From Candidatus Pelearchaeum maunauluense (GTDB lineage Archaea > Thermoproteota > Nitrososphaeria_A > Caldarchaeales > Caldarchaeaceae): a DNA stretch of 64,000 nt. How positions within the stretch are numbered: position 1 is the first letter of the stretch; each line of letters starts with the position of its first letter. The translations under genes and the position numbers were made by a program. This document shows, piece by piece, positions 2,115 through 13,274 of this stretch. Under the pieces are notes generated by a model. That model saw only the letters and a program-made list of their open reading frames with translations, searched no databases and was not told the DNA's origin. The stretch spans positions 121,086 through 185,085 of the forward strand of contig JANVYQ010000004.1 of assembly GCA_030059675.1 (NCBI GenBank). Reading direction: 5' to 3'.

Positions 2115-2915
2115 TTGAGCGGGGGCTGGAAAAATATCTGGACGCTGTTCAGCAGGCCTGGGGAGCGCATAGAGGTAGTAGAAACAGGCTACGACATGGT
2201 AGATGACCGCGAGGAGTTCAGACTTAGGATAGAGAAATCCCTATCCCAGCTCAGAGGGCAGATTGAGCGGCTCAACAACAAGTACAGAGAACTGGCCGCG
2301 AGGAACAAGCTATATTTCGAGAAATGTATCGAGGCACTGGTAGCTAGGGACGAGGAGAGGGCTAAGATATACGCCTCCGAGATAGCTGAGATTAAGAAGC
2401 TGGCCAAGATAATAATACATAGCCAGCTTGTCCTGCTCCAGATAAGGATTAGGCTGGAGAGCATCCTAGAGCTAGGGGAGGTTCTCGTCCTAGTAAGGCC
2501 GCTCATAACCCTGCTGGAGAATGTGCGCACAGAGATAGCTGATGTAGTCCCAGAAGCTTCGGAAAACCTCCGCTCACTCGCCAACACGATAGAGAACTTC
2601 ATAACCGAGTCCGAGACGTATGTCGAGCCACCGCCCAGCCAGGCTCTTGAAGAACTCTCAGACGAAGCTAACTTCATCCTAAACGAGGCCAGGAGGATAG
2701 CCGCTGAGAAGGTGAAAGAACACTTCCCAGATATACCAACGCTCACAGAGGAGGAGAAGGCAGTATATTCCTACGTGATGTCCAACCAAAATGAGGAGCT
2801 GGACCTGGACGAGTGCGCATCGCAGCTGGGGATAAGACCCGAAAACCTACAGGAGATATTGAGGAGATTGCAGGAGAAGGGACTGATAGAGATACAGATA
2901 GGGGAGGTTAGCTAG
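2115..2915 (+). CDS. cdvB: CdvB / ESCRT-III (Snf7-like) with C-terminal winged helix
   Basis: Snf7 core (LFEKC-like YFEKCIEAL, RAKIYASEIAEIKK, QIRIRLES); MIM2-like FPDIP; C-terminal wHTH (LDECASQLGI...LRRLQEKGLI). Confidence 0.9.
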   Translation: MSGGWKNIWTLFSRPGERIEVVETGYDMVDDREEFRLRIEKSLSQLRGQIERLNNKYRELAARNKLYFEKCIEALVARDEERAKIYASEIAEIKKLAKIIIHSQLVLLQIRIRLESILELGEVLVLVRPLITLLENVRTEIADVVPEASENLRSLANTIENFITESETYVEPPPSQALEELSDEANFILNEARRIAAEKVKEHFPDIPTLTEEEKAVYSYVMSNQNEELDLDECASQLGIRPENLQEILRRLQEKGLIEIQIGEVS

Positions 2916-4023
2916 TCCCATACTTCTCCTGCCATTTCAACAGCTTCTGCATATTCTCCAGAGCTATTGATGGTCGTCTCTTCTTCAGAACTTCCAGAAA
3001 ATCATCCATGGTTATTGGTCTTGGGTTTCCGTCGCCGCTTCCAGAGGAGAAGAGCTCATTAACCACACGAAGCTGTGCCTCCATGCATACGTCATGTATA
3101 TCTGCCGCAGAATAGCCATCAGACATAACAGCGAGCTGATGTAAATCAACGCCAACATCAAGCTTCAAGCCACTCGTATACATGGTGAACAACTGCTTAC
3201 GCGCCTCCAAGTCTGGTAAGGGAACGTAGATGCGCTTCTGGAATCTCCTGATGAATGGCTCGTCCAGATACCAGGGCTTATTCGTTGCTGCTATGACGTA
3301 GATATACTCCTTCTTGCCCTTGCTCAGTATTCCATCCATCTCCTTTACGAGCTGGTTTCTTACCCTAGCTTCTCCCCCAACTTCCAGGAACCTCTCCGCC
3401 GTGAGCGAGTCAACCTCGTCTATGAAGATTATCGCTGGCTTTCCCTTGCTGGCCACCTGCCTGGCCTGGCTGAAGAGGCGTGCCACGTTTCTCTCAGACT
3501 CTCCGAGCCACTTGGACATTATCGTAGCAGCGTCAACGACGAAGTAATGCGCGTCAATCTCCTTTGCTACGGCAGCCGCGAGGAGCGTCTTACCGCATCC
3601 AGGGGGGCCGAATACCAGAATCCCACGCGGCCAACCAAGCGGAAAGAGGTCTGGCCTCCTAACAGGAAACACTATGCTCTGCCTAATCGCCTTCTTAGCC
3701 TCCTCAATATTCACTATGTCGTCCCACGATACCTGCGGCTTATGACGTAGTATAGTGTCGTTGAATGTTACTTTCTGCTGCTGTGTTACTGCTAGCTTAT
3801 GCTGCTCAGCTACCCCCAGCTTCTCAATACGCGCCTCATACTGGCTTATCTTCTCGACGAAGACCTTACGCAGCGCCTGGTCTTGAGTTAGGTTATAGAG
3901 CTTCCACAGCAGGTCTATCGCTTCGCGGTATCTCTTTACAGCCTTAGCTGTCTGTCCTATCCTGTCATAATAAACAGCCTCACGGGCCTTGTATGCTGCT
4001 ATCCTCTCCAGCTCGGCGAACAT
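2908..4023 (-). CDS. cdvC: CdvC / Vps4 AAA+ ATPase with N-terminal MIT domain
   Basis: MIT helices (AREAVYYD...YREAIDLL); Walker A GPPGCGKT; pore loop SKWLGESE; Walker B IFIDEVD; RRFQKR; SD AGGAGGTG upstream. Confidence 0.92.
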   Translation of the reverse strand: MFAELERIAAYKAREAVYYDRIGQTAKAVKRYREAIDLLWKLYNLTQDQALRKVFVEKISQYEARIEKLGVAEQHKLAVTQQQKVTFNDTILRHKPQVSWDDIVNIEEAKKAIRQSIVFPVRRPDLFPLGWPRGILVFGPPGCGKTLLAAAVAKEIDAHYFVVDAATIMSKWLGESERNVARLFSQARQVASKGKPAIIFIDEVDSLTAERFLEVGGEARVRNQLVKEMDGILSKGKKEYIYVIAATNKPWYLDEPFIRRFQKRIYVPLPDLEARKQLFTMYTSGLKLDVGVDLHQLAVMSDGYSAADIHDVCMEAQLRVVNELFSSGSGDGNPRPITMDDFLEVLKKRRPSIALENMQKLLKWQEKYGTS

Positions 4024-4722: not shown

Positions 4723-5769
4723 ATGCCGCAGATAAGGGACGCAGCTATTCACGGTTATGGTGGCTATGTGCCGCGTCTCCGCATAAAGGCTACGGAAATT
4801 GCACGTATCTGGGGTAAGGAGAGCGGCGAGGTTCCCATTAAGGAGAAGGCGGTTGCAGCGATTGACGAAGACGCTATAACTATGGCCATAGAGGCATCTC
4901 GCTACGCTATACGTAGGGCGGGGATAGACGCGGCTAGGATTGGCGCCGTGCATGTGGGGACTGAGTCTAAGCCCTATGCCGTGAAGCCCAGTGGGACGAT
5001 AGTAGCGGAGGCGCTGGGAATAGGCTCTAACATAACCTCGGCAGACTACGAGTTCGCCTGCAAGGCTGGCACAGAGGCGATGCAGAGCATAATAGCTATG
5101 GTCTCTGCTAGGCGTATAGAGTATGGCCTCGCCATAGGCTCCGACACGGCTCAGGGGAGGCCTGGGGATGCGCTGGAATACACCGCAGCAAGCGGCGCGG
5201 CCGCTCTGGTCATAGGGAGAGAAACAAGAGACGCCATAGCGAGGTTTGAATACTCGGTAACCTATGTAACTGATACGCCAGACTTCTGGCGTAGAAGCTA
5301 TGAACGATTCCCCATGCATACTTCACGCTTTACGGGAGAGCCAGCATACTTCAAGCATACGATAACCGCGGTTAAGAATCTCCTAGCGGAAAACGGCTAC
5401 AGCATTAATGATTTTGATTATTTCATCTTTCACCAGCCTAACGTCAAGTTTCCACTAACCGCTGCCAAGATTCTCTCCATACCATTAGCGAAGGTTGAGC
5501 CTGGGATAGTTTCCGATGTTGTTGGCAACACCTACGCTGCCTGCTCCATGCTGGGGCTTGTGAAGGTTCTGGACATAGCCAAGCCTGGGCAACGTATATT
5601 GATGACCTCATTCGGCTCAGGCGCGGGGAGCGATTCCTTCGTTATAACTGTCGGGGAGGGAATAGAGGAGAAGAGGGAGAGAGCTCCTCCATTAGCGGCG
5701 TTCTTCAGCAGGAAGAAGACGATAGACTACGGAATGTATCTGAAGATGCGGGATAAGATAAGGGTGTGA
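4723..5769 (+). CDS. hmgS: Hydroxymethylglutaryl-CoA synthase (archaeal type)
   Basis: GTESKPYAVKP, catalytic EFACKAG, FHQPN, GNTY and SFGSGAGSD motifs. Confidence 0.95.
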   Translation: MPQIRDAAIHGYGGYVPRLRIKATEIARIWGKESGEVPIKEKAVAAIDEDAITMAIEASRYAIRRAGIDAARIGAVHVGTESKPYAVKPSGTIVAEALGIGSNITSADYEFACKAGTEAMQSIIAMVSARRIEYGLAIGSDTAQGRPGDALEYTAASGAAALVIGRETRDAIARFEYSVTYVTDTPDFWRRSYERFPMHTSRFTGEPAYFKHTITAVKNLLAENGYSINDFDYFIFHQPNVKFPLTAAKILSIPLAKVEPGIVSDVVGNTYAACSMLGLVKVLDIAKPGQRILMTSFGSGAGSDSFVITVGEGIEEKRERAPPLAAFFSRKKTIDYGMYLKMRDKIRV

Positions 5770-5772
5770 GAG

Positions 5773-6927
5773 TTGAAGAAGGTTCTCATAGCAGGATATG
5801 GCCTTACGAAGGTGGAGGAGCACTGGGATAGGAGCTTGGAGAACTTGATGGCTGAGAGCAGTCTCAAAGCCCTGGAGTATGCTGGCCTCTCGCGTGTTGA
5901 TGCTGTTTATGTGGCTAATGTGTATGGTGAGGTTTTGCAGGAGCAGGCCGTTCTCGGCTCTGTCTTGGCCGAGGAGCTGGGTATGAGCGGTGTGCAGGCT
6001 TACAGGATAGAGGCGGGAGCTGCATCTGGGATAGCTGCTGTGAAGATGGCTGCTAACGCGATACAGTCTGGAGAAGCCAACGTAGTCCTTGTAACTGGTG
6101 TTGAGAAGCTCTCAGACGGTACGGCAGAGGAGCACTTAGCCCTCACCGCGATGGAGGAGCGCGAAGAATACACGGGCCAGATGGGTGTTCATCAAGCTGC
6201 TAGCGCCGCGCTACTATACAGGCTCTACCTAAGTCGGTATGGTGCTAGGCAGGATGGTATAGCCCAGTTCGCCGTCATAAGCCATGAGAACGCCGTTGGT
6301 GTGTCTCACGCGCAATACCCCTTCAAGGTGGGCTTGGATACGGTTATGAAATCACCCTACCTATCGGAGCCTCTTCACAGGCTTGAGGCAACGGCGGTAG
6401 CTGACGGCTCGGCAGCCATAATACTCTGCTCAGAAGACTTCGCAGCAAAGCTTGACCCGCCCAAGGCGAGGTTGGCCGCGTGTAGCCTAGCAACCGACTA
6501 CGTTACACCATTTGACAGGGAAGACCCCCTCCACTTCCAAGCCCTGGCGCGCGCTACTCACAGCGCCCTAGAGATGGCCGGCGTCTCAAGGGAGCAGATA
6601 GGCTTTCTGGAGCTTCACGACTCCTTCTCAATAGTTGCCGCCCTCTCGCTGGAGTCGTCTGGCTTCTTCCCGCGCGGGAAGGCTGGGGAGGCGGCTCTCG
6701 CAGGAAAGCTGAGCCTCAACGGGGAGCTACCCATAAACACCTTCGGCGGCCTCAAGGCGCGCGGCCACCCTGTAGGAGCTACGGCAATCTACCAGCTCGC
6801 TGAAGCTTATCTCCAGCTAACACACCAAGCTGGGAAGAACCAGCTAGACAACGCTAAACACGCCATGGTGCAGTCGCTGGCAGGCTTGGGATGTGCGGCG
6901 GCGGTATGCATTCTTGAGGAGGCGTGA
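5773..6927 (+). CDS. Thiolase-family protein (acetoacetyl-CoA thiolase-like) lacking catalytic cysteines
   Basis: Thiolase fold motifs GVEK, DGSAA, ELHDSF, GGLKARGHPVGAT; EAGAASG in place of EAACASG. Confidence 0.85.
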   Translation: MKKVLIAGYGLTKVEEHWDRSLENLMAESSLKALEYAGLSRVDAVYVANVYGEVLQEQAVLGSVLAEELGMSGVQAYRIEAGAASGIAAVKMAANAIQSGEANVVLVTGVEKLSDGTAEEHLALTAMEEREEYTGQMGVHQAASAALLYRLYLSRYGARQDGIAQFAVISHENAVGVSHAQYPFKVGLDTVMKSPYLSEPLHRLEATAVADGSAAIILCSEDFAAKLDPPKARLAACSLATDYVTPFDREDPLHFQALARATHSALEMAGVSREQIGFLELHDSFSIVAALSLESSGFFPRGKAGEAALAGKLSLNGELPINTFGGLKARGHPVGATAIYQLAEAYLQLTHQAGKNQLDNAKHAMVQSLAGLGCAAAVCILEEA

Positions 6928-6931
6928 TACC

Positions 6932-7348
6932 ATGTTGGAGTTTGGAATCAGGATACCTAGGTATTGGCGCGGCAAGCCTTTTAGATATCGACTTGAAGGA
7001 TTTAGATGCGAGGAATGCGGCGAGTTCCACTTCTCCCCAAGGCTCGTGTGTAGAAAATGCGGTGGAAAGCGACTGCGCCGCGACAAGCTCTCCGAACGCG
7101 GGAGGCTCATATGCTATACCGTCGTAAAGTCGGCTTCACCAAGCTTTGAGGCATACACGCCCTACATAGTGGGGCTAATCCAGACGGAAGACGGAACCAT
7201 GATAGTGGGACAGCTTACAGACTGCGACCCCGAAGAACTACATGAAGGGATGGATGTTGAGGCTACGATAAGAAGGCTGCAAACCGATGGCGAGAGCAGG
7301 CTAATCGCTTATGGTTATAAGTTTAGACCCGCTATACAGCGCCCTTAA
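6932..7348 (+). CDS. DUF35 Zn-ribbon/OB-fold scaffold protein of the thiolase-HMGS complex
   Basis: CEECG...CRKCG ribbon, PYIVGLI, YGYKFRP; follows the thiolase gene. Confidence 0.9.
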   Translation: MLEFGIRIPRYWRGKPFRYRLEGFRCEECGEFHFSPRLVCRKCGGKRLRRDKLSERGRLICYTVVKSASPSFEAYTPYIVGLIQTEDGTMIVGQLTDCDPEELHEGMDVEATIRRLQTDGESRLIAYGYKFRPAIQRP

Positions 7349-8168
7349 TCTTTTTCCACAGGAGTATTATGGCGTATTCGCGTGGTATGTTGTCGCGCTC
7401 CATTAGGCGCTGCACATCCGCGGTTAGCATGGCCTCTGCTCGCGTGCCGTGAGAGAGCACGTACCTCTTCTTCACCTCCTCCAAAATCCTGTCAGCCAAC
7501 TCCCTAGAAGTGGTTACGTCGTTAATCGTACGCGGCAGCTCTGATATCTCGTGAATCTTCTCCTCAAGCTCCTTAATCCTATTCCTAAGCATGCTAAGCT
7601 CCTGCCGAAGCTGGGGAATCCTAGCCTCCAACTCTTCTTTCAGACCAACATCGCCTTTACTAGAAGCAGTCTCATCTAGTTGGAGTGTGTTAAGTTCTAG
7701 GCTTGCCCAGTAGAGGTCTACCTCAACCTTGCTGAAGCGCTCTTCTAGCTGTGCCTTAGCCTGCTCTAGGATTTCTAGGGTTCTCCGCGAGTCATTAACT
7801 ATCTTGGAGCGTAGCTCGTTTAGCCTGGTTAGTATCTCTCTAATGGCGCGTGGGGGGACGGTCTCACGTATGCATAGTTCCTGGAACTTGAAGTCCCGTT
7901 TCCTTACATTCTCTATGTCTGACTTGAGCTTTTCATAGTGATTGATTGCGCTCTCCACCAAAGCCTCTTCTGGCTCTTCCTCCGACGCTACCTCAAGCTG
8001 CGGCTCAGCCTCTTGCTGCTGTTCTTCGCGAGTCTCTACAGCCTCGCTCACAGGCTCTATGACTGGCATATCCTCGCCAGTAGGGGGCTGGCTCTCCTGC
8101 TTCTTAGCCCCCTCTCCAGAGACTCTAACGATAATCTTACGCGGCATCCGCTCCTCACCGTTTGACAA
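7332..8168 (-). CDS. Coiled-coil protein, putative CdvA-like
   Basis: N-terminal KIIVRV, acidic/Gln linker, long heptad region with VRKRxxxFxELxxxExVP; start TTG 8168 or ATG 8147 (SD GGTGAGGAG). Confidence 0.6.
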   Translation of the reverse strand: MSNGEERMPRKIIVRVSGEGAKKQESQPPTGEDMPVIEPVSEAVETREEQQQEAEPQLEVASEEEPEEALVESAINHYEKLKSDIENVRKRDFKFQELCIRETVPPRAIREILTRLNELRSKIVNDSRRTLEILEQAKAQLEERFSKVEVDLYWASLELNTLQLDETASSKGDVGLKEELEARIPQLRQELSMLRNRIKELEEKIHEISELPRTINDVTTSRELADRILEEVKKRYVLSHGTRAEAMLTADVQRLMERDNIPREYAIILLWKKIKGAV

Positions 8169-8172
8169 GCTA

Positions 8173-8886
8173 TTACTCCTCCCGCATCTTCGGATACTTC
8201 AGCAGCTTTTTAGCTCTTTCAAAGAGGCTTGTACCAGATATACGGGGAGCTGATTCCAAGACATTCACGGTATTACCTTCATCACCAACCTCCTCAGGTC
8301 TAGCTGGCCTCTGGAGACCGAGCTTGGAGAGTATGCGCTTCTTCTCAGGGCTTGAATCCACATCAACCATGTGTCGTATGTTAAGCGTGTTGAGGCCATA
8401 TATTGTGCTCTCCAGAAGCTTACCGCGCTGAATCCCTATAGAAACCCTAACCGAAACCACCCTACCATCCTTGTTAATCCTGAACACCTTAAACTTGAGG
8501 CTTGATATTTTATGCGTCTTCCCATACTCCACAGGGTCTATAACCAGAGCAACAGCCTTGGGGAACATTAGCTGGTATCTCTTCTGCGTATCTATGTCTG
8601 TTGTTGAGAGAAACACGTCAAAGCCTGGGTGTGAGTGGTACCAGCCGACTATGTAAAGCCCTGAGTTTGTCTGGTGGAGCCACTCCGCCACCTCAGCCAT
8701 AACCGCCTCATCTAGATGGACGAAGACTGGAGTACCATGCTGCTCCCCTGTTACCGCGTCCCATATCTCAAGGACCTGGCTCTGCGCTCTCCCGACGAGG
8801 AGGCCTGCGACCTCCCTGTTAAGATTCGTGAGTGAGTGCTTAACTATCTTACCCAGAGCCAGCGGATATATGCGAGCTATCATCAC
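8173..8886 (-). CDS. JAB1/MPN/Mov34 (JAMM) metalloprotease, Rpn11-like
   Basis: Intact JAMM motif: EVAGLL...GWYHSHPGFDVFLSTTD; AVALVIDP. Confidence 0.92.
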   Translation of the reverse strand: MMIARIYPLALGKIVKHSLTNLNREVAGLLVGRAQSQVLEIWDAVTGEQHGTPVFVHLDEAVMAEVAEWLHQTNSGLYIVGWYHSHPGFDVFLSTTDIDTQKRYQLMFPKAVALVIDPVEYGKTHKISSLKFKVFRINKDGRVVSVRVSIGIQRGKLLESTIYGLNTLNIRHMVDVDSSPEKKRILSKLGLQRPARPEEVGDEGNTVNVLESAPRISGTSLFERAKKLLKYPKMREE

Positions 8887-8994: not shown

Positions 8995-9918
8995 TCAGCC
9001 CATACCGCGTGTCTTAGCCTCATCAAGTATTCGCACAGCATCTACCGGGACGGATATGGGTAGCGGGAAAGCTGCTTCACTAAGCTCAAGCGTAATCTCG
9101 CGTTTAGGCTTATCTATACGTATAACCTTACCGACCATACCCCTCAACGGCCCAGAGACAATCTCAACAACCTGGCCAGTGGTTATGATGTCTATCAGCG
9201 GCTTCTCAACCAAGTGCGCGGCTATCTCGTCAAACGTGACCGTTATGAGCGGCCTATTCTTAATATGCCTAATGCCCTGCGAGACGGCTGCGACAGCCTC
9301 CTTATTCTTGGCCTCTATTAAGACATAGCCCCGAACAGTGGGTAGAATCAATATTGATGCAACATCTATCTTCTCCCTAATCCTAAACAGGAAGTCAAAG
9401 CTCTGCTCAATCCATCCATCATCTTTCCCACCTGTGAACGCCTTTCCTTCGGCGTATGTTTTGCTGGCGGTCTTATACCACAGATAGCTTCCAGACGCGC
9501 AGTCGGGGGCTGAGAGAACCAGGGCATAGGAGACGCCTCTCCTAACATCTATCATCGGCTCTATATTGACCTCATACCAGCCAGGCTCGGAAAGGAGGAG
9601 CGGGTCATACTTAACGCCCGATATCTTGTTTTCTAGGCTCACCCCATACTCTCCCACTCGGTAGAAATCCGCGTGGAGAGGTGCTGTAAGCTCACCCTCA
9701 CGCCCTAGATACAGGTAGAGCTTGGATATCGTCGTAGTCTTGGGTGCTGTGAATGTCTGGTAAGCCCTGCTCTCCGCGTTGATGCGCCAGGCCTCAAAAG
9801 GCTCGCCAGTCGTCTCAACGAGCACCTCAGTCAAACGCGCCTCAATAATACGCGCTACATTACGCTCCTGCCCAACCGTCGTCTTAACCGCGAAGTACCT
9901 ATACCCAGCAGAAGACAT
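8995..9918 (-). CDS. spt5: Transcription elongation factor Spt5 (NusG) with large internal insertion
   Basis: NGN (FAVKTTVGQERNVA...RGYVLIEA) and KOW (GQVVEIVSGPLRG) domains; 307 aa versus about 150 aa normally; next to secE. Confidence 0.9.
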   Translation of the reverse strand: MSSAGYRYFAVKTTVGQERNVARIIEARLTEVLVETTGEPFEAWRINAESRAYQTFTAPKTTTISKLYLYLGREGELTAPLHADFYRVGEYGVSLENKISGVKYDPLLLSEPGWYEVNIEPMIDVRRGVSYALVLSAPDCASGSYLWYKTASKTYAEGKAFTGGKDDGWIEQSFDFLFRIREKIDVASILILPTVRGYVLIEAKNKEAVAAVSQGIRHIKNRPLITVTFDEIAAHLVEKPLIDIITTGQVVEIVSGPLRGMVGKVIRIDKPKREITLELSEAAFPLPISVPVDAVRILDEAKTRGMG

Positions 9919-9981: not shown

Positions 9982-10152
9982 TTAAACGCCTCCCAGTGCT
10001 ATCGCCAGAAACCTAATGATGAATGCTATAAGCCCTACGATGGCTACTCCCAGTAGCGTGATGCGCATCGAGATGGAGAACTCTTCCCATGTCGGCTTCT
10101 TAGCCAGCTTCAGCAGCGTGGCTGCGGACTTCAGGAAGCTCTTCAGCCCCAA
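9982..10152 (-). CDS. secE: Protein translocase SecE/Sec61-gamma (56 aa, not in ORF track)
   Basis: Hand translation MGLKSFLKSAATLLKLAKKPTWEEFSISMRITLLGVAIVGLIAFIIRFLAIALGGV; KPTWEEF motif plus one TM; canonical position upstream of spt5. Confidence 0.9.
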   Translation of the reverse strand: MGLKSFLKSAATLLKLAKKPTWEEFSISMRITLLGVAIVGLIAFIIRFLAIALGGV

Positions 10153-11522: not shown

Positions 11523-13274
11523 ATGGCTATCAGAAGCTTGGATGAGGCTGCTGTGCTAGACGCCCTAGCGTCGCCCAAGAGGCTAGCTATTCTGAGGACG
11601 CTCGCGCAGCAGCCTATGAACTATACCGAGCTTATGAAGTCTGTTGGGATGACCAAGCAGAGGGATGCGGGAAAGTTCTCCTACCACCTGAAGAAGCTCC
11701 TCTCAACAGACCTTGTCCGCGTTAATGAGAAGACTAAGCTCTATGAGCTCTCCAAGCGCGGGCACGCGGCGCTTGCCCTCATTTCAGACATGCGCAAAAA
11801 CTTGGAAGCCCTTGATATGCTGATAGTCAGGAGAACCGAGCTGACGGTGGAGCCTTTTGACAAGAACAAGATAGTTAATGTGCTGATCAACGAGGCCGGC
11901 GTCCCTCCCCGACTGGCTAACCGCGTCGCCTCCCTAGCTGAGGAGAAGCTACTAGACCTCAACGTGGAGTATCTATCAGCTCCCCTGATAAGGGAAATCG
12001 TAAACTCCATACTGATAGATATGGGGCTTGAACGCTATAGGCATAAGCTCATAAGGGTTGGTATGCCTCTCTACGATGTTTCCCGCCTCCTTAACGATTC
12101 TGTGAAGAGGCGCGATCCGTATGGTTTGATAGTTAGTACCTCGCAGGCCGTCATAAGGGAGTTTATACTCTTTGACGTATTGCCCAGAAATGTAAGCGAC
12201 GCCCATATCACGGGGAACATACATCTTGACAACATAGGTAGCTGGCCGTATGGTGAGTATGCCAAGTCATACAGCTATCATGATGAGGTCATAAACAGTA
12301 TAGTGGATGAGAGCCTCTACATAGATGCCGAAACTGGGATAGAGATTGAGCTGAAGAACAGGCGGGAGCTGGAGAAGCTGAGCAGGACAGTACAACAGCT
12401 GGATAAGATAGACATGCTGAAGAAGAAGCTGGTGTCGCTGATTATAGAGTACGACCCGGTGCTGATTCGCCATATACATGAGAAGACGGCAAACGCTAGA
12501 GTGAGCATAGTAGCCTACGCCGACAGCGACTTGAATAACGACGAGAATATGATTGATGAGCTTGTGCAGAATATTGGGCAAAGAATATCGCTATCCCTCG
12601 CTGGTGTAAAGTTCTTCGCCTCAGGATATAGCATTAACGATGGCCACCCAATCTCTGGCGTCGCGGCCATAAACCTACCACGCCTAGCCATATCCTCCGA
12701 GGGAGACGAGAACAAGCTCTGGAGCTCTTTAAGAAACTGCTTTGAGAACATAGCCCAGGCTTTCATAAAGAAGTATGAGATGCTCCGCGAGTTGCGTGGT
12801 AGGGAGGCTGGGGGATATTTCGTCGTGTCTGGCTGCGGCGTGGGTGAGGCGCTCAGAATACTTGACAACAAGTCGGAGAAGCCCAACATAGAGGTTCTCA
12901 AGGAGCTTGTCAGGAGGATGGAGAGGGAAGCTAGACGGGCTGGCCGCGATAAGGTGAGCATAGTCATCGGAAGCGTCTGCTCATATGATGCTGCGCGTAG
13001 GATGTATAGGATAGACTCTTCCGAGTTTGGTCATAAGCGGTTGTCAGAGCTCGTTTCGGGTAGGTATGAGCATTATACAACATCGGTCTATGAGCTTTTC
13101 AAGGAGATGAGCCAGCGCGAAGTGCTTGATGCTCTCGCTGAGATGCTACAGTTCTTCACTGGCGGGTTTTTGGTAGGCGTATCTGGTAGGCGCGAGGCTT
13201 GGGCTCGTCTAATCCCAGCGCTGTTTCAATGTGTTGAGGAGCGTAAGGGCAGGGTCATGATACAGCCAGCGTAG
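11523..13274 (+). CDS. wHTH + ATP-cone + degenerate class III ribonucleotide reductase (NrdD)-like domain
   Basis: ArsR-like HTH (ALASPKRLAIL...FSYHLKKL); ATP-cone (VRRTELTVEPFDKNKI...LSAPLIREIV); NrdD-like DAHITGNIHL and AINLPRLA; no RVxGY or C-terminal Zn site. Confidence 0.8.
   Translation: MAIRSLDEAAVLDALASPKRLAILRTLAQQPMNYTELMKSVGMTKQRDAGKFSYHLKKLLSTDLVRVNEKTKLYELSKRGHAALALISDMRKNLEALDMLIVRRTELTVEPFDKNKIVNVLINEAGVPPRLANRVASLAEEKLLDLNVEYLSAPLIREIVNSILIDMGLERYRHKLIRVGMPLYDVSRLLNDSVKRRDPYGLIVSTSQAVIREFILFDVLPRNVSDAHITGNIHLDNIGSWPYGEYAKSYSYHDEVINSIVDESLYIDAETGIEIELKNRRELEKLSRTVQQLDKIDMLKKKLVSLIIEYDPVLIRHIHEKTANARVSIVAYADSDLNNDENMIDELVQNIGQRISLSLAGVKFFASGYSINDGHPISGVAAINLPRLAISSEGDENKLWSSLRNCFENIAQAFIKKYEMLRELRGREAGGYFVVSGCGVGEALRILDNKSEKPNIEVLKELVRRMEREARRAGRDKVSIVIGSVCSYDAARRMYRIDSSEFGHKRLSELVSGRYEHYTTSVYELFKEMSQREVLDALAEMLQFFTGGFLVGVSGRREAWARLIPALFQCVEERKGRVMIQPA

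Follow-up and report, generated by a model that had tools for sequence, protein, structure and literature searches.

The spt5 locus

The spt5 gene lies at 8995..9918 (-) of the window, the whole 64,000-nt stretch of DNA that was analysed, and its ORF translates to 307 aa. The TIGR00405 model for Spt5 scored 117.6 bits against a cut-off of 69.95 (E 4.3e-34), which identifies the product as an archaeal Spt5. Pfam Spt5-NGN (PF03439; 58.6 bits, E 6.2e-16) was split over two stretches, the better of them pairing aa 181-234 with positions 29-82 of the 84-position profile. KOW (PF00467) was found at aa 248-272, with 23.2 bits against a cut-off of 22.3. The layout is thus that of Spt5, with one KOW after the NGN domain. 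When the whole genome was searched with Pfam NGN, spt5 came back as the lone NGN-bearing gene, again matched as two pieces. Directly upstream is secE (9982..10152 (-); Pfam SecE, E 1.1e-6), and the conserved gene order secE-spt5 is kept. The earlier note's statement that the flanking NGN and KOW motifs and this gene order are intact is borne out by the Pfam matches. Judged from its sequence, the gene encodes an Spt5, NGN plus KOW, that is interrupted by a jelly-roll domain.

The conventional parts of the protein could be delimited individually. The N-terminal piece of the NGN domain, comprising strand 1 and helix 1, spans aa 6-30 (9829..9903 (-)) and includes A10, as placed by Pfam, the structural model and the alignment with Methanocaldococcus jannaschii Spt5. 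The C-terminal NGN piece, aa 183-237 (9208..9372 (-); Pfam and alignments), contains L200 together with the invariant residues G197, Y198 and E202. The KOW domain occupies aa 245-297 (9028..9186 (-); Pfam and model).

The interruption of the NGN domain falls after helix 1 and before strand 2. In an alignment with M. jannaschii Spt5 (4zn1_A), aa 8-29 paired with residues 2-23 and aa 181-301 with residues 25-145; about 151 residues in the Caldarchaeaceae protein replace one residue of the M. jannaschii protein. The earlier note had claimed an in-frame domain of about 150 aa inside NGN and had taken archaeal Spt5 to be about 150 aa long. Both claims agree with the M. jannaschii alignment, and the domain is in-frame in 17/17 other genomes of the family. 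The interval that it gave for the insert, 9373..9828, corresponds to aa 31-182, and every string that it quoted (VARIIEARL, YQTFTAP, KLYLYL, GWYEVNI, YALVLSA, YLWY, YAEGKAF, DDGW, DFLFRI and IDVASILIL) is present in the 307-aa translation.

Comparison with closer relatives narrows the insertion. Short Spt5 proteins of sister families, 168-169 aa in length, already have a small hairpin that links helix 1 to strand 2. Because the short forms own this hairpin and the long forms add a domain at its tip, the strict insertion in an alignment of long and short forms is the 137-aa segment aa 39-175. The outgoing strand of the connecting hairpin, common to the short sister-family proteins, is aa 31-38 (9805..9828 (-)), with a modelled strand E32-35; the returning strand is aa 176-182 (9373..9393 (-)), with a modelled strand E178-182. 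Both were placed by alignment and model. Between them, at 9394..9804 (-), sits an acidic jelly-roll beta-sandwich, a divergent choice-of-anchor R / DUF4082 / Cwp84-lectin-like domain recognised by the alignment, by AF2 and by structure and profile matches.

Eight positions are invariant in 17/17 inserts, among them K60, D105, P106, L107, W114 and R127. Three of these belong to a DPLLL motif (aa 105-109; 9592..9606 (-), located in the insert alignment and the DNA) whose D, P and first L are invariant in 17/17. The motif is without a counterpart in the consensus of the surface-protein homologues described below, and is therefore a candidate Spt5-specific contact loop. Insert length is 149-156 aa, the exception being one genus with 170-172 aa. 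In that genus (L003:1588-2106 (+); P0003-P0005) there is an extra acidic loop, and the insert is 14-23 residues longer than in other genera. Another genus (L008:1576-2037 (+) and L013:1846-2304 (-)) has an Asp-box-like stretch near the C-terminal strands, with weak BNR matches (E 0.034 and 0.2).

The usual gene order, with ribosomal-protein genes after spt5, is not seen in the window. After spt5 come a gene for a JAB/MPN-domain protein (8173..8886 (-); Pfam E 2.1e-19) and then one for a Glu-rich protein of 278 aa (7332..8168 (-)), for which no Pfam match was found. About 4 kb beyond the latter is a gene for a Vps4-like AAA ATPase that carries a MIT domain (2908..4023 (-)). Three genes adjoin one another at 4723..7348 (+): one is a frame of 348 aa that contains the C-terminal domain of beta-ketoacyl synthase III, another encodes a thiolase, and the third a zinc-ribbon/OB-fold protein of ChsH2-like type. 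The set resembles the HMG-CoA synthase trio in the mevalonate pathway of archaea. On the other side of spt5, a 583-aa frame (11523..13274 (+)) joins N-terminal winged-helix domains (DUF7347, HTH_20 and ArsR-type) to a partial match, at aa 316-448, to NrdD, the anaerobic ribonucleotide reductase; this combination is an unusual fusion.

Fold, relatives and distribution of the inserted domain

AF2 modelled the whole protein with pLDDT 89.0 and pTM 0.66, and the insert alone with pLDDT 89.9 and pTM 0.87. The insert is predicted with confidence to be a jelly-roll, an all-beta sandwich whose first and last strands are modelled adjacent to each other. When the insert model was compared with 48,161 chains by VIA-align, the top match was the baseplate of phage phi812 (9euf_0; Z 17.7, with 151 of 156 residues aligned at rmsd 2.2), followed by the capsid protein of the giant virus PBCV-1 (8h2i_bG; Z 15.8) and the Bxb1 tail tip (Z 15.0). 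The lectin-like domain of Cwp84 (4ci7_A) has the same fold, with Z 14.2 and rmsd 2.8 over 146 residues, and PHR domains (Z ~11) and carbohydrate-binding modules (Z ~7-9) scored lower. Foldseek matched 51 viral models with E<=1e-3, and many of these bear the name of a minor tail protein or a tail protein. The earlier note had suggested structure prediction with a Foldseek search, and these returned a confident jelly roll with 9eui_Q at TM 0.81. Its guess at a jelly-roll or carbohydrate-binding-like fold thus proved sound, the phage baseplate and tail, capsid, Cwp84, PHR and carbohydrate-binding structures all being matched.

Relationship at the level of sequence was seen with profiles. An insert-only profile was built from 17 insert sequences, and hhalign of this profile against one of 43 non-Spt5 domains gave a probability of 99.8% and E 2.1e-27 over 146 columns, which marks the two as homologous. 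The profile for choice-of-anchor R (NF041539) was passed by 6/6 non-Spt5 homologues tested. The inserts themselves score below every curated cut-off (best scores: NF041539, 19.5 against 30 bits; PF18560, 22.2 against 27; PF13313 (DUF4082), 21.5 against 28.4), and collinear matches beneath threshold were found to DUF4082 in 9/17 inserts, to the Cwp84-type lectin-like domain in 7/17 and to PHR in 2/17. The window's own insert had no Pfam match at E<=1, and among NCBIfam models only a chance match to SRP54 (E 0.09); when the insert profile was run against the sequences of PDB chains, the sole match was at chance level (E 1.4). The insert is a divergent relative of the choice-of-anchor R / DUF4082 / Cwp84-lectin-like modules of surface proteins and of phage tail and baseplate proteins.

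The contexts of these relatives were examined in a library of 1.84 billion proteins, where hmmsearch with the insert profile gave 173 matches at E<=1e-3. In the best 150 of the 173, three carry the Spt5 core and two are Spt5 fragments; the non-Spt5 homologues in the same 150 are mostly of ~500-1,800 aa, and many have multiple copies of the domain. Their partner modules include DUF2341, beta-helix, cohesin, Ig-like and phage Gp37-like domains. Three close relatives of the top non-Spt5 match, itself included, belong to Chloroflexota according to NCBI. An origin from proteins of secreted or viral type, also put forward in the earlier note, agrees with these findings, the sequence homologues being repeated domains of large proteins, either secreted or on the surface, and of phage-tail-like proteins. 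One library representative, P0033 (235 aa), starts as an insert-bearing Spt5 and continues past ~residue 163 as unrelated basic sequence, most likely because of a frameshift in that record.

Within the order, 40 relatives were searched. The insert was in-frame in 17/17 other Caldarchaeaceae genomes, which represent four genera and include one-contig and four-contig genomes, and was not found in 23/23 genomes of three sister families; the latter matched only aa ~182-305 of the query, with a short N-terminal piece added in 11/23. The survey of spt5 lengths in Caldarchaeales that had been suggested thus separates Caldarchaeaceae, with long genes, from the 23 sister-family genomes. A large protein collection yielded 21 long forms (281-324 aa, query included) and 10 short forms (168-169 aa), several of the long forms being labelled by their sources as Spt5 of Aigarchaeota or Candidatus Caldarchaeum. 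When genomes of the order were searched with the profile, exactly one copy of the domain was found per Caldarchaeaceae genome, always within Spt5, and none in the sister families; no further copy was found in the 18 Caldarchaeaceae genomes, the window's own included. In a phylum sample of 401 genomes, the domain occurred in an Spt5-sized frame only in Caldarchaeaceae (16/16 members and the window's own genome), and eight other genomes gave weaker profile matches in frames of 383-1,502 aa.

The simplest history is a single capture in the ancestor of Caldarchaeaceae, a family of archaea from hot springs, with retention since then. Taken jointly, the anatomy, homology and lineage distribution of the insert as set out here are very nearly certain. 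No description of an insert in the Spt5 of this lineage was found in the portions of main texts covered by a literature search; an alignment with the insert could stand in Fig. S1 of PMC7593976. The family-wide Spt5 architecture is apparently unreported.

Reality, core functions and possible role of the insert

If the insert were absent from the mature protein, it would be an assembly artefact, an intein or a removed intron. Its in-frame presence in 17/17 other genomes of the family indicates that it is no assembly artefact. An intein was rejected: the protein lacks any His-Asn dipeptide, its only Cys is at aa 140, and the jelly roll is not a HINT fold. An intron was rejected as well, since codon-level purifying selection is not expected of one. 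Over eight unsaturated pairs, the insert had a dN/dS of 0.06-0.27 and the core one of 0.02-0.09. The insert is under purifying selection, and by dN/dS it evolves 2-4 times faster than the core. Between genera, insert identity is 24-38%; core identity was 72-78% in the two inter-genus pairs measured. Composition gave no sign of recent transfer: against a GC of 0.52 for the window, the insert has 0.54 and the core 0.50. Given 18 independent genomes with the insert in-frame, the window's own included, and given the codon-level selection, the lack of His-Asn, the single Cys, the jelly-roll fold and the unremarkable GC, loss of the insert before the protein is mature is scarcely conceivable.

The rest of the protein retains the clamp-binding and Spt4-contacting residues of Spt5. 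A10, Y198, L200 and E202 align with M. jannaschii A4, Y42, L44 and E46, and Y198 and E202 are invariant in a 25-sequence alignment. A10, Y198 and L200 are thus the counterparts of the clamp-binding cavity residues A4, Y42 and L44 of M. jannaschii, whose mutation abolishes or weakens RNA polymerase (RNAP) binding, according to excerpts of PMC2896526. In the same excerpted text, M. jannaschii Spt5 E46 contacts Spt4, the Spt4 and Spt5 beta-sheets meet edge to edge, and NGN helices 1 and 3 also touch Spt4 (PMC2896526). The Spt4 gene was present in 41/41 genomes, on another contig in the window's genome, and no family-specific indel in Spt4 was seen in 28 aligned sequences from 30 loci. Spt4 is therefore probably still the partner of this Spt5, to go by its presence and by the conserved contact Glu. 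Because the insert departs from the chain immediately behind helix 1, which touches Spt4, its base should adjoin the Spt4 site; this placement follows from the linear insertion site and the published NGN-Spt4 contacts.

Charge distinguishes the two parts of the protein. The insert is acidic in 17/17 by a bulk charge measure (pI 4.6-6.4, net charge -1 to -12), and the core is basic in every member, with a pI of about 9.5. Aromatic residues make up 15-22 of the ~154 residues of the insert. The acidic charge argues only against nucleic-acid binding. Since the insert is acidic, unlike the nucleic-acid-binding DII domain of bacterial NusG, a role in protein contact is favoured.

We propose that the domain would project from NGN beside the Spt4 contact, formed by helix 1 and the sheet edge, and away from the clamp-binding cavity. 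In that position it may work as an outrigger for protein contacts, perhaps by means of the conserved, Spt5-specific DPLLL loop; its task would be either to stabilise the elongation complex of Spt4/5 with RNA polymerase or to dock a partner specific to the lineage, and not to clamp nucleic acid. Taken by itself, this role in docking or stabilisation is tentative, and we hold it to be somewhat less probable than its opposite. The best explanation overall blends the anatomy with this role, and we give it a probability of about 0.5. A simple argument from heat adaptation is weak, because the sister families without the insert share similar habitats. A bolder version of the docking proposal, which we consider rather unlikely, is that the domain may be a regulatory receiver on a universal factor, placed beside Spt4 at the upstream face and docking a lineage-specific partner. 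Such a partner could be a chromatin protein or a hijacking viral protein, or else the ribosome or the termination nuclease FttA/aCPSF1. If this were true, elongation would be switchable in these archaea, which would have a one-gene counterpart of the specialised bacterial NusG paralogues, built from a domain class that phage tails and cell surfaces otherwise use for gripping other molecules.

The faster evolution of the insert counts against a docking or stabilising role, since a rate 2-4 times that of the core also fits a tolerated passenger, that is, a domain that landed in a permissive hairpin tip and was kept solely since its removal or unfolding would harm Spt5, and that has no specific activity. 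Such a history would suit the site, a surface hairpin already extended in the sister families, and the modelled adjacency of the insert's terminal strands, as expected for insertion in a loop. The divergence between genera (24-38% identity for the insert; 72-78% for the core in the pairs measured), the higher dN/dS and the lack of a matching change in Spt4 point the same way. We nevertheless judge a mere passenger unlikely: the domain persists in all four genera (17/17 other genomes), neither lost nor decayed, its dN/dS is well below 1, and its acidic charge is consistent in 17/17. Further, the invariant K60, D105, P106, L107 and R127 are absent from the surface-homologue consensus, which suggests a new conserved surface.

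Two more specific activities were considered besides docking or stabilisation. By analogy, the insert might be an acidic regulatory module that, while Spt4/5 is free, masks the basic surfaces with which NGN or KOW faces DNA or RNAP (autoinhibition), or that handles basic chromatin proteins at upstream DNA. The opposed charges of insert (pI 4.6-6.4) and core (about 9.5) in every member would allow this, and there are precedents in the autoinhibition of Thermotoga maritima NusG via domain-domain contacts (excerpts of PMC5224480 and PMC7819879) and in the N-terminal acidic region of eukaryotic Spt5 (PMC7819879, in excerpt). The T. maritima autoinhibition runs between NGN and KOW, not through DII (PMC5224480, in excerpt), the role with chromatin proteins is pure analogy, and the whole-protein pTM of 0.66 does not tell on insert-core contact; such a module is distinctly unlikely. 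Still less probable is a ligand sensor, the boldest idea in the earlier note, which had named a possible ligand sensor or docking module. On that idea, a sandwich like those of lectins and carbohydrate-binding modules would bind a sugar, nucleotide-sugar or other small ligand and so tune elongation. The fold class does include lectin-like domains and many carbohydrate-binding modules (Z about 7-9), and the aromatic content is high (15-22 of about 154 residues), but the closest structures are not carbohydrate-binding modules; they are phage tail and baseplate proteins, capsid proteins and PHR domains that mediate protein contacts. Moreover, no Spt5 or NusG is known to have a cytoplasmic glycan ligand.

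Comparison with known systems

Spt5/NusG is the only transcription factor known to be common to all life. The topology of the NGN domain is, in the usual description, the same everywhere (PMC7819879, in excerpt). Canonical archaeal Spt5 proteins (TIGR00405; M. jannaschii 4ZN1 and 3LPE, Pyrococcus furiosus 3P8B and 3QQC, Thermococcus kodakarensis 9BCT) and those of Caldarchaeaceae are alike in NGN plus KOW, in the clamp-cavity residues, in the Spt4-contact Glu, in the secE-spt5 order and in being single copy. The difference is one of length: the solved archaeal proteins are of 147-152 aa (163 for the 3QQC construct) with a one-residue link, where the Caldarchaeaceae protein has ~151 residues.

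The DII domain of Thermotoga maritima and Aquifex aeolicus NusG, the sole kind of NGN insertion so far described, is likewise an extra globular domain within the NGN of a thermophile's elongation factor. According to excerpts of PMC5224480, T. maritima DII binds dsDNA at 0.04 uM through a positive patch and also binds RNAP, and the authors proposed that DII stabilises the factor-polymerase complex at high temperature. The bacterial DII replaces the NGN beta-hairpin, and Spt5 is stated, at review level, to be without insertions there since Spt4 binds (PMC7593976, in excerpt). That bacterial inserts occupy a different loop, as the earlier note had stated, is supported by the excerpted texts of both papers (PMC5224480, PMC7593976). 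DII thus takes the beta-hairpin's place, whereas the Caldarchaeaceae insert lies between helix 1 and strand 2; DII binds nucleic acid through a basic surface, whereas the Caldarchaeaceae insert is acidic in bulk charge. The NusG structures 2XHC and 1M1G were not among the listed fold matches of the insert-only model.

The relatives in surface and phage proteins, namely choice-of-anchor R (NF041539), DUF4082 (PF13313), the Cwp84 lectin-like domain (PF18560), the phi812 baseplate and the mycobacteriophage tail tip, have the fold in common with the insert (Z 14-17.7). The insert and the surface-homologue consensus also have in common the motifs Q-x-F, G-W, Y-A-[IL]-V-L and Y-x-W, and a final D-x-x-F-[KR] strand. 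The surface and phage domains are often tandem repeats, in large proteins with signal or sorting sequences or with phage tail modules; in Caldarchaeaceae, by contrast, a single copy is embedded in the cytoplasmic Spt5, away from any extracellular or virion context. Unlike the surface homologues, the Caldarchaeaceae insert has invariant residues of its own, including the DPL of DPLLL. In sum, a complete additional domain can be accommodated in an archaeal Spt5, at a site neighbouring the bacterial one and with Spt4 kept; an adhesin-type module was brought into the cytoplasm, and Caldarchaeaceae offer a natural experiment on adding accessory surfaces to the elongation complex.
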